Shown here: positions 9,402 through 10,793 of the stretch, in pieces
How positions within the stretch are numbered: the first letter of the stretch is position 1
Layout of the letters: each line of letters begins with the position of its first letter
Virus record (IMG/VR): IMGVR_UViG_2667527582_000004
Direction: 5' to 3' (one strand)
DNA length: 13,399 nucleotides
Origin: a virus
Taxonomy: Duplodnaviria > Heunggongvirae > Uroviricota > Caudoviricetes
The notes under the pieces: generated by a model
Told to the model about the DNA's origin: nothing
The model's input: only the letters and a program-made list of their open reading frames with translations
Databases searched by the model: none
Translations under genes and position numbers: made by a program

Positions 9402-10442
9402 ATGGTTGATTTATATTCGCCTACTCAGCTTGTACAGGTGGTTAATGCTGTAGATGTACAAAAACAACTAAATGCGTTGTTTACCAGTTTGTTTTTTACT
9501 CGCTCGGTAATGTTTGAATCGCGCGATATTATTCTTGATACAATCGACGATCCAAATATCCCAATTGCAGCGTTTTGTTCTCCTATGGTGGGTAGTAAAG
9601 TTTCACGTGACGAAGGGTACGAATCAAAAACAATTCGTCCAGGCTATATGAAGCCGAAAAGCAGCATTGATCCAAATAAGTTAGCTGTGCGCCCTGCTGG
9701 TGTATCACCTGAGCAATACAATGCTTTTGGGGCACGTAATATTAAAGTTAAACAGGCGATTGTAAATCAGGCTAAAGCTATTCGTGCACGTATTGAATGG
9801 CTTGCTGTTCAGGCAATCACAACGGGGAAAAATATCATTGAGGGCGATGGTATTGAACGTTATGAGCTGGACTGGAATATAAAACCACAAAATATCATCA
9901 CTCAGTCTGGCGGTACTGAGTGGTCAGGTAAGGATAAAGAAACTTTTGATCCAAATGATGATATTGAGAGCTACGCAGAATTTAGTGAGGGCGTCACTAA
10001 TATCATCATTATGGGTGGTAATGTATGGAAGAAATACCGTTCATTCAGAGCGATAAAAGAGGCTTTGGATACCCGTCGTGGTTCTAATTCCGAACTGGAA
10101 ACGGCCCTTAAAGACCTTGGTGATTCGGTGAGTTTTAAAGGGTATATGGGCGATGTTGCGATTGTTGTTTACAGCGGGCGTTATACCGACGAGGACGGAA
10201 CAGAAAAACATTTCCTTGATCCTGATTTGATGGTGCTTGGCAATACGGCTCTTCAGGGGATTGTCGCCTATGGCGGTATTCAGGATCCGGAGCTAATCCG
10301 AATGGGGCTGACTAAAGCCGAACTTGCACCGAAAAACTATATTGTGCCTGGTGATCCGGCTATTGAATATGTGCAGACACATTCAGCACCACAGCCAATA
10401 CCGGCCCGCATCAATCGTTTTGTTACCGTTCGCATTGGCTAA
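9402..10442 (+). CDS. major capsid protein, lambda gpE-like
   Basis: Motifs shared with lambda gpE as I recall it: NIITQSGGTEWS, DTRRGSNSELETA, GDVAIVVYSG, MVLGNT. Start chosen at ATG 9402 (RBS AGAGGA, 5-nt spacer), which aligns with the gpE N-terminus; the track ORF starts earlier at 9189. Confidence 0.88.
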   Translation: MVDLYSPTQLVQVVNAVDVQKQLNALFTSLFFTRSVMFESRDIILDTIDDPNIPIAAFCSPMVGSKVSRDEGYESKTIRPGYMKPKSSIDPNKLAVRPAGVSPEQYNAFGARNIKVKQAIVNQAKAIRARIEWLAVQAITTGKNIIEGDGIERYELDWNIKPQNIITQSGGTEWSGKDKETFDPNDDIESYAEFSEGVTNIIIMGGNVWKKYRSFRAIKEALDTRRGSNSELETALKDLGDSVSFKGYMGDVAIVVYSGRYTDEDGTEKHFLDPDLMVLGNTALQGIVAYGGIQDPELIRMGLTKAELAPKNYIVPGDPAIEYVQTHSAPQPIPARINRFVTVRIG

Positions 10443-10451
10443 GGGGGAGCA

Positions 10452-10793
10452 ATGGCTACTCATTACACTGAACTCATGGCTGGCACTGAAGCACTGGTGA
10501 CTACGCTGGGGATATTTTCAGCTAATAAAGGGGTAATTCCTGCATTTACGCCACTGATGCAGGAAGATGCAACAGGTGCACTGGTGGTATGGGATGGTTC
10601 GAGCGTAGGTAAAGCGGTTTATGTTTCCGCTGTACAAATCGACACAGCGAAAAAAACACAGGCACAGGTTTATAAGACAGGTGTTTTAAATGTTGATGCT
10701 CTGAACTGGCCTGAGTCTGTAAAAGAACTGTCGGCAAAGGTTGCCGCGTTTGTTGGCTCAGGTATTTCTGTTCAGCCGCTGGCTCGTGTGTAA
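10452..10793 (+). CDS. head decoration protein, lambda gpD-like
   Basis: 113 aa, the same size class as gpD; shares the pattern TPLM...WDG...YK(T/S)G...WPE...AF.G..IS with lambda gpD; RBS AAGGGGGAG. Confidence 0.78.
   Translation: MATHYTELMAGTEALVTTLGIFSANKGVIPAFTPLMQEDATGALVVWDGSSVGKAVYVSAVQIDTAKKTQAQVYKTGVLNVDALNWPESVKELSAKVAAFVGSGISVQPLARV

Follow-up and report, generated by a model that had tools for sequence, protein, structure and literature searches.

A capsid and decoration gene pair of a satellite lineage in the late zone of an EcCICFT073-like PICI embedded in a helper portal gene

The capsid and decoration genes described here are almost certainly the late-zone capsid module of a known kind of satellite, an EcCICFT073-like Gram-negative PICI, and the island that carries them is the helper-embedded form, which interrupts a lambda-like prophage within its portal gene (site B:Phage_portal_2:241). 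We tentatively suggest that the two proteins co-assemble into full-size helper heads; the whole explanation, a known PICI module plus such co-assembly, is given a probability of roughly 0.55. Both the gene pair and the satellite type have been described already: homologs of both proteins in E. coli PICIs were described and deleted in a 2018 study (PMC6092414), the crystal structure of one homolog (c1499, PDB 3BQW) has been available since 2008, and portal-embedded 11-kb islands with the exact att block were catalogued in 2023 (PMC10111431). The locus illustrates, without newly opening, a puzzle: in many Gram-negative PICIs a shell-plus-cement pair specific to satellites is retained under strong purifying selection, sometimes as the sole late genes, yet its deletion is phenotype-free in standard assays. 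The features of the window (the whole stretch of 13,399 nucleotides that was analysed) are listed in the table.

Table. Features of the island and its right-hand junction in the window
Feature	Positions	Strand	Evidence or remarks
Integrase	2318-3559	+	RefSeq annotation of 99.9% identical island; ORFs
AlpA (integration zone with integrase, 2318..3818)	3561-3818	+	RefSeq annotation; ORFs
D5/P4-type primase	6385-8139	+	Pfam D5_N, DUF5906, Pox_D5; phrog_864 2e-175
Iterons/candidate ori	~8147-8284	+	27-nt repeats containing CATCTACC at 8147 and 8234
SSB	8736-9185	+	Pfam SSB
Conserved upstream element (candidate promoter or operator)	9303..9340	+	three (A/G)TTGCA-like hexamers, 9314, 9324, 9334
Satellite major capsid protein, lambda gpE family	9402..10442	+	346 aa, complete HK97 fold; Pfam, PHROGs, model
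Satellite head decoration protein, lambda gpD / phage 21 SHP family	10452..10793	+	113 aa; Pfam, PHROGs, PDB matches
Second AlpA-family helix-turn-helix gene	10805..11188	+	Pfam PF05930 1e-8; phrog_2790 2e-48
Island cos site, cosN GGGCGGCGACCT	11213..11278	+	blastn vs the helper prophage cos upstream of nohD (locus L001, 6001-6066)
Nu1-type small terminase homolog	11390..11860	+	Pfam PF07471 1e-21; phrog_57 7e-42
attR identity block AAGGCGAT	13034-13041	+	junction identical in complete genomes
Helper prophage portal 3' part	13040-13266 (feature block 13034..13266)	+	Pfam Phage_portal_2 positions 238-317

The capsid protein aligned with positions 4-327 of the 329 in the Pfam profile PF03864 (Phage_cap_E; 1e-41) and matched phrog_29 at 2e-89. 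Its AF2 model (pLDDT 79.8) has the HK97 fold with N-arm, E-loop, spine helix and A-domain, and in Foldseek it gave a TM score of 0.96 with 3BQW and of 0.92 with lambda gpE (7SJ5), which together with the full-length profile match places the protein in the lambda gpE family. It is 55% identical to EcCICFT073 c1499 and 42% identical both to lambda gpE, over the full length, and to the gpE of the helper. At the position of lambda W308, whose change to alanine yields an assembly-deficient protein, it has an aromatic residue as well, Y313. A ribosome-binding site, AGAGGA, lies 6 nt 5' of the start. A longer ORF beginning at TTG 9189 (417 aa) was considered and rejected, since the homologs and the ribosome-binding site favour ATG 9402; the small ORFs found ahead of c1499-type genes are not homologous to the stretch upstream of this ATG.

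The second protein of the pair scored 56.4 bits (4e-15) against Pfam PF02924 (HDPD), whose gathering cut-off is 29.1 bits, matched phrog_49 at 6e-26, and matched the structures 1TD0 (4e-16) and 1C5E of phage 21 SHP and lambda gpD. Identity was 54% to c1500 and 38-45% to helper Dec, and the protein has a lineage-specific short N-terminus and an SVQPL C-terminal tail. Judged from its sequence, it is a trimer-type cement protein that would match the shell protein. The first-pass annotation had read the two genes as homologs of lambda gpE and gpD, and the Pfam, PHROGs and structure matches bear this out. Relative to lambda and phage 21, the window pair thus shares fold, family and the trimeric type of cement but differs in sequence (identities of 42% for the shell protein and 38-45% for Dec), in the shortened Dec N-terminus and the SVQPL tail, in the Y at the W308 position, in the lack of flanking B, C, Nu3 and FI genes, and in gene order, which is capsid then decoration here and decoration then capsid in lambda, as had been noted at first pass, and in the resident prophage.

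Upstream of the pair, about 65-90 nt 5' of the capsid start, the three hexamers of the conserved element are spaced at exactly 10 bp. The element is kept in Escherichia, Kluyvera, Superficieibacter, Cedecea and Kosakonia, and more weakly in Serratia, in a spacer that otherwise diverges. It is newly reported here and may serve the module as an activator-dependent promoter or as an operator. A scan for the sigma-70 consensus found fewer sites than in shuffled sequences and none before the capsid gene.

The setting of the pair is that of a PICI. The island measures 10,923 bp between the AAGGCGAT blocks, nearly all of its genes lie on the + strand, and their order is int-alpA-BroN-primase-SSB-late zone; the replication zone (6385..9185) also holds a hypothetical gene between the iterons and SSB. 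As described for Gram-negative PICIs (Fillol-Salom 2018), int is followed by alpA at the left end, genes are mostly unidirectional, the island has its own primase with a candidate ori (iteron-like repeats) directly downstream, and it falls in the size range of ~10-20 kb, with specific att sites and without lysis or tail genes. No portal, protease or scaffold gene was found inside the island among the ORFs or by Pfam, PHROGs or RefSeq annotation. The lambda-family portal fragment at the right end of the window is the 3' half of the helper portal gene that the island interrupts. The claim that the satellite carries, of the head module, shell and decoration only is upheld. Among the ten ORFs scanned with Pfam and PHROGs no Sid or Psu family of P4-like satellites was seen; the other island ORFs were judged by RefSeq annotation. 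Rfam scans, at the gathering score and with E up to 1, left the island empty and matched only the flanking tRNA, and the RNA fold of a 3 x 54-nt tandem repeat was no better than that of shuffles (z = -1.39).

The window consists of three contigs joined by N10 spacers, with the asnB/tRNA-Met and gadB flanks on separate contigs; all three contig joins fall in repeated sequences, and the final 123 nt are from gadB, a two-copy gene. The asnB/tRNA-Met flank was considered as the integration site and rejected, because the att block is immediately followed by the start of the island contig and because the tRNA, truncated by an N10 run, would have no CCA end. The attL side is missing from the window, lost at the contig end. 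In complete genomes, an island 99.94% identical to this one splits a prophage portal gene, as do islands of 98.9-99.9% identity, each co-oriented with the helper prophage, whose gene order is nohD-terL-W-portal-S49-Dec-MCP. Helper and island occur together in, for example, E. coli JNE23-011 (NZ_AP045067) and Z0117EC0116 (NZ_CP098192); protein records of the satellite pair are WP_001710063 and WP_000228100 for MCP and WP_000190771 for Dec. The earlier view of the element as a satellite was right. The same features are those of the HE-PICIs of site B:Phage_portal_2:241 (Tommasini, Mageeney, Williams 2023): an 11-kb island co-oriented inside the helper portal gene, zones in the order int-AlpA, Bro, replication and late with a capsid gene in the last, and an identity block, AAGGCGAT, that is the attL/attR block of the catalogued 11-kb E. 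coli B_Phage_portal_2_241 ('aaggcgat' in the supplement of that paper). We found no difference in kind from the HE-PICIs; the window copy is set apart by the joining of its contig to unrelated contigs and by an apparent frameshift in the small terminase gene.

We also compared the pair with its relatives. Against 50,697 phage records it reached at most 43% identity; its lineage, absent from these phages, is newly reported here. The dN/dS ratio was 0.02-0.08 for the capsid gene and 0.07-0.12 for the decoration gene across five genera, with dS saturated; on these sequence comparisons the pair is under strong purifying selection, again a new observation. Its ORFs are intact in 395 of the 5426 complete E. 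coli genomes and full-length in at least seven other genera. A scan of genome contigs gave just 4 loci, the peptide patterns being narrow, and the wider distribution comes from a protein search and contig look-ups. These data make it very improbable that the pair is a decaying, functionless leftover of a head module captured from a phage, a reading in keeping with the lack of phenotype of the EcCICFT073 homologs but at odds with the intact reading frames, the low dN/dS and the conserved ribosome-binding site and upstream element.

The MCP-Dec(-AlpA) module is 80-87% identical between islands whose integrases are ~52% and whose primases are 38-44% identical, which suggests that the pair is passed on as a unit among PICIs of several genera, reported here for the first time. 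Its GC content is 0.40-0.48, versus 0.54-0.56 in the primase and SSB genes, and both this and the modular distribution fit the earlier proposal of a separate acquisition. In Cedecea and Kosakonia the module is carried by islands inserted in the helper E gene (the window integrase is 52-53% identical to the integrases of E-gene-embedded islands in a pairwise comparison); it is also found in PICIs integrated at chromosomal sites, beside phoQ in CFT073 and, in Serratia and Lelliottia, at fis. Each of the five embedded islands has a helper whose head is of the gpE/gpD/S49/Portal_2 kind. The second AlpA-family gene lies directly 3' of Dec in the related loci L004-L007, at 63-71% identity, and is present in the Serratia island also. 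Of 29 reference PICIs from Gram-negative hosts, 21 were reported to have MCP genes (PMC10111431), and among EcCICFT073-type PICIs a capsid gene followed by a decoration gene is what the late zone usually carries. In an Edwardsiella island MCP and Dec are the sole late genes, which suggests more than an accessory role.

This distribution bears on the idea that the pair is a backup or complementation copy for helpers whose head genes are interrupted, as by HE-PICIs in gene E, poorly expressed downstream of the embedded island, or defective, as in cryptic lambdoid prophages, and so widens the helper range. A backup role for captured late genes was proposed by Tommasini et al. (PMC10111431); the module does occur in islands that split the helper E gene, and in portal-embedded islands the helper D and E genes lie downstream of a 10.9 kb insertion in the late operon. 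But the gene interrupted in our case is the portal gene, which the pair cannot replace, and excision restores an interrupted gene anyway. PICIs integrated at chromosomal sites carry the module equally, and its lineage, 42% identical to helpers, is an old one specific to satellites rather than a recent capture of a helper gene. We consider the backup role unlikely.

The divergence between satellite and helper proteins is not even. The N-arm, E-loop, spine-helix and C-terminal regions of the MCP are 17-36% identical to helper MCPs and 77-93% identical among satellites. In lambda, the Dec N-terminus pairs with the E-loop and N-arm of gpE (PMC5701804). The MCP periphery and the Dec N-terminus are both satellite-specific, and we therefore argue that the two proteins are a cognate pair. 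It is conceivable, though we think it improbable at about the same level as the backup role, that this pair builds the satellite's own shell lattice on portal, scaffold and protease stolen from the helper. The observations behind this proposal are the absence of the lineage from sequenced phages, the purifying selection, and the co-divergence of N-arm and E-loop with the Dec N-terminus. If it were true, these elements would stand half-way between PICIs of the classical kind, by which whole capsids are stolen, and cf-PICIs, by which only tails are, as an intermediate grade of capsid piracy. The benefit would then be invisible in laboratory assays with lambda: it might lie with helpers whose head genes are defective or incompatible, in a different head size with some helpers, or in escape from capsid-sensing defences. 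The cf-PICIs (EcCIEDL933) resemble the window island in encoding their own shell protein, but they also encode portal, prohead protease, head-tail connectors and large terminase/HNH, none of which is present in the window island, where only shell, cement and small terminase are found.

The closest system with functional data is EcCICFT073. Its c1499 and c1500 genes are of the same families, in the same order and at the same place after the replication zone, its helpers are of the lambda type, portal, protease and scaffold genes are absent from both islands, and a downstream 93-aa gene is 76% identical. The two differ in several respects: in the window island a full Nu1-type small terminase takes the place of RppA and an AlpA-family gene after Dec that of c1501, the 68-aa ORF before c1499 has no counterpart, and the insertion site is a prophage portal gene instead of the chromosome beside phoQ. 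When c1499 or c1500 was deleted, the transfer of EcCICFT073 and its interference with lambda stayed unchanged, and the virion DNA from EcCICFT073 with lambda was all phage-sized (PMC6092414); a review states that its capsids are of normal size (PMC6893505).

These results weigh on the proposal, made in the first-pass annotation, that the satellite redirects or poisons helper capsids by substituting the major capsid protein itself. In its redirecting form, satellite MCP and cement would replace or mix with helper gpE, changing the triangulation number and giving small heads that exclude the helper genome. Such redirection by an MCP homolog was not a new idea, having a precedent in Ccm of SaPIbov5, an MCP homolog that redirects capsid size (PMC6893505), and PmCI172, a PICI with an MCP homolog, makes small, 38-nm heads (PMC6092414). 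The strong conservation of the pair, the concentration of divergence from helper MCPs in the inter-capsomer and periphery regions, and the identity of only 55% to the tested c1499 would also agree with it. Ccm and the window MCP are both satellite homologs of a helper major capsid protein in cos-packaged islands, but Ccm is 23% identical to the helper capsid protein, lacks a cement partner, converts prolate to small isometric heads and blocks the phage, and the EcCICFT073 pair showed neither of these effects. Moreover, a small head is unneeded, because a lambda head of normal size has room for four island units (43.7 kb), and cos and small terminase already explain preferential packaging. In that relative, therefore, the outcome that would speak against capsid substitution, no change on deletion of the two genes, has largely been seen, and the proposal is unsupported. 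Since its proteins are only ~55% identical to c1499 and c1500, the present island could still behave differently from EcCICFT073, but we regard resizing as a poor prospect, somewhat below the backup role.

In its poisoning form, the pair would interfere with or defend against other phages, spoiling the head assembly of non-cognate lambdoids or acting as a decoy for capsid-sensing systems. PICIs commonly carry interference functions after ori, and a divergent subunit binding helper scaffold or portal might in principle be dominant negative. However, when the EcCICFT073 genes after ori were expressed singly from pBAD, only c1503 (RppA) inhibited lambda (PMC6739421), reducing plaquing, while c1499 or c1500 alone left plaquing unreduced. 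Deletion of either gene did not relieve interference, although effects of c1499 and c1500 may have been hidden behind RppA by epistasis, and Pfam and PHROGs give the pair capsid and decoration families only, with no defence-type domains. Interference thus appears highly improbable.

From the EcCICFT073 data, with no resizing and no effect on interference, we therefore read the module as neither a size-redirecting device nor a poison, and as not essential. At the same time, the absence of a laboratory phenotype together with dN/dS below 0.1 implies that its function is poorly explained by simple redundancy. In the literature searched we found no report that a capsid homolog of any Gram-negative PICI is incorporated into particles, and no later functional study of Gram-negative PICI capsid genes.

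Under the reading that we prefer, co-assembly into full-size helper heads, late transcription of the pair would start either in the helper late operon, continuing into the co-oriented island, or at the triple-repeat element, possibly under control of the adjacent AlpA-family protein. Satellite MCP and Dec may then enter helper head assembly, with portal B and the protease/scaffold C/Nu3 supplied by the helper, as accessory or redundant subunits, and the resulting heads would be full-size, satellite-only or mixed. The island cos site and the Nu1-type small terminase would direct packaging of island concatemers, in which four 10.9-kb units amount to about 90% of lambda. The module would in this case serve as a dispensable accessory for exploiting the helper.

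The packaging signals themselves were examined in the window. It contains exactly one exact cosN, and a second cos site of the kind reported for EcCICFT073 was not found in it. The flanks of the island cos are 95% identical to the helper prophage cos, and divergence starts at the helper cosB. The small terminase of the island is 36% identical to helper NohD. Its gene reads as frameshifted in the window by the change of A6 to A5 at ~11801, and intact copies encode 180 aa.

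The two genes that the first-pass annotation had taken for homologs of the lambda major capsid protein gpE and decoration protein gpD were confirmed as such by Pfam, PHROG and structure matches. The capsid product matched Pfam Phage_cap_E from end to end (1e-41) and PHROG 29 "major head protein" (2e-89), and over its full length it shared 42% identity with lambda gpE and likewise with the gpE-type protein encoded by the resident prophage. Its best sequence match among solved structures was PDB 3BQW (2.7e-121), titled "putative capsid protein of prophage (E. coli CFT073)", with lambda gpE next. 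The AlphaFold model (pLDDT 79.8), in which the N-arm, E-loop hairpin, long spine helix and A-domain were all present, superposed on 3BQW with a TM score of 0.96 and on lambda gpE with 0.92. The decoration product also matched the phage 21 SHP and lambda gpD structures. The gene order is the reverse of lambda's, as had been noticed, and of the neighbouring prophage's too; GC is indeed lower across the pair (0.40-0.48) than in the primase and SSB genes (0.54-0.56), and the island holds no portal, protease or scaffold gene. The region is almost certainly the known capsid module of phage-inducible chromosomal islands (PICIs), and the gene pair, the solved structure and the island type are already in the literature.

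Features of the capsid module, its surroundings and the related islands
Feature	Coordinates	Size	Details
Major capsid protein gene	9402-10442	346 aa	AGAGGA ribosome-binding site; Phage_cap_E, PHROG 29
Decoration protein gene	10452-10793	113 aa	Pfam HDPD 4e-15; PHROG 49 "head decoration"
Three (A/G)TTGCA-like hexamers	9314, 9324, 9334 (region 9303-9340)		exact 10-bp spacing; about 65-90 nt before capsid start
Island cos site	11213-11278		lambda cosN GGGCGGCGACCT; left and right flanks 95% identical to helper prophage cos
Kluyvera, Superficieibacter			capsid-decoration pair in PICI late zone
Cedecea, Kosakonia			pair in islands embedded in helper E gene
Serratia			pair in PICI at fis site
Edwardsiella (L010)			portal-embedded island; capsid and decoration are sole late cargo
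Lelliottia (L012)	10409-11752		fis-site PICI; capsid, decoration, added S49 protease

The window contains two runs of ten Ns (2109-2118 and 13267-13276). To the left of the first are asnB and a truncated tRNA-Met (flank 1-2108), to the right of the second are 123 nt of the two-copy gene gadB (flank 13277-13399), and every join between the three contigs falls in repeated sequence. We rejected asnB/tRNA-Met as the location of the island as an assembly artefact, unrelated contigs having been joined via N10 at repeats. The part between the runs, 2119-13266, is a single contig; a stretch of E. coli JNE23-011 matches it at 99.94% identity, and many other complete genomes do so at 98.9%. In the matching genomes, the island always lay within a portal gene belonging to a lambda/DLP12-like prophage, in the order nohD, large terminase, W, portal 5' part, island, portal 3' part, S49 protease, decoration, capsid, FI and tail genes. 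Judged from these genomes, the true integration site is the prophage portal gene, and because they show the island splitting that gene, the portal fragment at 13040-13266 is the helper's interrupted gene. The block AAGGCGAT is common to both junctions of the 10,923-bp island. Its genes run from integrase, AlpA, a Bro-N protein, a YlcI/YnfO gene on the other strand and small genes including an Icd-like one, through DUF4222, a D5/P4-type primase followed by iterons, and SSB, to capsid, decoration, a second AlpA-family gene, the cos site, a Nu1-type small terminase and a 93-aa gene. This organisation has been published for Gram-negative PICIs (Fillol-Salom et al. 2018, PMC6092414), and within these the island corresponds to the helper-embedded PICIs (HE-PICIs). 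A survey of HE-PICIs (Tommasini, Mageeney, Williams 2023, PMC10111431) assigned 491 islands to 14 sites in lambda-type late genes, among them B:Phage_portal_2:241, where its supplement places 11-kb E. coli islands with the identity block "aaggcgat"; we read the same block in the window island.

We compared the capsid protein with 50,697 phage records, and no match reached 60%, the best being a lambda-type gpE at 42.3%. A search of 5.8 billion proteins gave an Enterobacterales block at 52-99% identity and then a drop to 43% or less, where proteins were of phage or helper type. Thus, the satellite capsid lineage was not found in phages by these sequence searches. Every lineage member examined lay within a PICI late zone in capsid-to-decoration order. 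The late zone is graded across relatives, from the pair alone in Edwardsiella to the pair plus S49 protease in Lelliottia, whose island also has a head-completion-family gene adjoining alpA; the lambda S49 protease gene also encodes the scaffold. The pair was 80-87% identical between islands differing in integrase (about 52% identity) and primase (38-44%), indicating that it moves as a module, which fits the GC difference. Of 5426 complete E. coli genomes, 395 contained the pair and 53 the window island itself. The capsid gene had a dN/dS ratio of 0.02-0.08 and the decoration gene one of 0.07-0.12, with dS saturated in distant pairs; in a close E. coli pair the ratio was 0.07. These ratios indicate that both genes are under strong purifying selection and kept as functional proteins; they contradict the idea that the pair is a remnant, for which we see almost no chance.

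The nearest studied relative is the model island EcCICFT073, whose capsid and head decoration genes were named c1499 and c1500 (PMC6092414). The capsid protein at the CFT073 locus, which we retrieved, is 351 aa long and is the one solved as 3BQW. Identity to the window proteins is 55% for c1499 and 54% for c1500, the two genes follow each other in the same order, and the 93-aa gene downstream shares 76% identity. In contrast, the window island is helper-embedded, lacks the small ORF preceding c1499, has an AlpA-family gene after the decoration gene, and pairs its cos with a full Nu1-type small terminase homolog where EcCICFT073 pairs cos with RppA. Deletion of c1499 or c1500 left both transfer and interference with lambda unchanged, c1499 showed no phenotype, and the DNA packaged with lambda was all phage-sized, "ruling out" size redirection (PMC6092414). 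Of 29 reference Gram-negative PICIs, 21 carry a major capsid gene, which is not needed for transfer (PMC10111431). When post-ori genes were expressed singly in a 2019 follow-up, lambda was inhibited by c1503 (RppA) only (PMC6739421). In that relative, then, the pair has been shown to be dispensable for transfer, not to resize lambda heads and not to poison lambda, which bears on the window pair by analogy.

The first-pass annotation had proposed that the capsid homolog redirects capsid size or poisons the helper. Redirection by a capsid homolog has a precedent in Ccm of SaPIbov5 (PMC6893505) and is not a new concept. PmCI172 makes small capsids, and the window pair is only 55% identical to the tested one, but the EcCICFT073 deletions and phage-sized DNA oppose redirection, making it improbable here. 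The deletion test suggested in that annotation has in essence already been carried out on that homolog, where it came out against the proposal. A role in poisoning or defence is contradicted by the pBAD expression and deletion data and is very improbable.

The satellite supplies a cos site and a small terminase itself; portal, protease/scaffold, large terminase and tail have to come from a lambda-type helper. In the mechanism that we favor, at roughly one chance in three, the pair would be produced late, either from helper late-operon transcripts that read through into the island, which lies in the same orientation, as argued by Tommasini et al. (PMC10111431), or from the triple-repeat element; its products would then feed into head assembly by the helper as accessory shell and cement subunits, and the resulting heads would be full-size. 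Four island units amount to 43.7 kb, about 90% of lambda's 48.5 kb, and would fit a normal head, in agreement with the multi-unit packaging reported for EcCICFT073. Alternatively, the pair could back up interrupted or defective helper head genes, but here it is the portal gene that is split by the island, and non-embedded PICIs carry the module as well, so we consider this unlikely. It is likewise doubtful that the pair builds the satellite's own shells on stolen portal and scaffold; if true, this would be a grade between classical and capsid-forming PICIs.

The A-domain of the satellite capsid protein (residues 206-295) is 55-66% identical to helper proteins, whereas the N-arm, E-loop end, spine helix and C-terminal strands are 17-36% identical to helpers and 77-93% between satellites. 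The satellite decoration protein has a shortened N-terminus and an SVQPL tail, both lineage-specific. The N-terminus of lambda gpD is part of a sheet that also includes the gpE E-loop and the N-arm of a neighbour (PMC5701804). The divergence pattern of the satellite proteins suggests a cognate pair, with the cement protein fitted to the shell protein of the satellite; such matching would account for the two genes travelling together. Within the A-domain, residues 206-265 (nt about 10017-10196) are 65% identical to helper gpE proteins, and residues 206-235 are closer to these than to c1499 (43%); either a constraint in common or earlier exchange with helper capsid genes could account for this. 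At the site of lambda W308, whose change to alanine (W308A) yields an assembly-deficient protein, the helper-type proteins all have W, while those of the satellite clade have either Y or W (Y313 in the window protein). Two predicted proteins from the large search, P0005 (463 aa) and P0080 (470 aa), carry Phage_cap_E and HDPD domains on a single chain, one belonging to the satellite clade (85% identity) and the other to a 42% clade; they may be capsid-decoration fusions or read-through calls.

The hexamer triple upstream of the capsid gene is conserved across five to six genera while the rest of the spacer is divergent, and a consensus scan found no sigma-70 promoter before the gene. The region looks like an activator-dependent control region and may be an AlpA-family binding site, the AlpA-family gene after the pair being a candidate regulator. 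The island cos diverges from the helper's at the start of helper cosB, and no second cos site was found. The small terminase is 36% identical to helper NohD. Compared with L001, a stretch holding a near-identical island and its helper prophage, a one-base homopolymer deletion (A5 at window 11796-11801, A6 at L001 19375-19380) shifts its frame and swaps the last ~42 residues for ~18 others (156 aa vs 180). In lambda Nu1, the C-terminal part binds the large terminase. The shift may be a sequencing error or real inactivation.

The YlcI/YnfO-family gene in the Bro zone (4787-5092, minus strand) has a paralog in the helper prophage just upstream of the helper cos (L001 5639-5833). The 815-nt non-coding stretch before attR holds three tandem 54-nt units (12473-12634), each with a short palindrome (CCTGCAATGCAGG, CCCCCATTGGGGG and CCTCAATTTGAGG); the units had no Rfam match, and their RNA fold was not better than shuffles (z = -1.39). 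Finally, there are three TGTGTATTGCA(A) motifs at the left of the island, upstream of int (2246-2301), and two near its right end (12939-12963); these are probably the doubled att-flanking motif of HE-PICIs (Tommasini et al.), that is, integrase arm-type sites.
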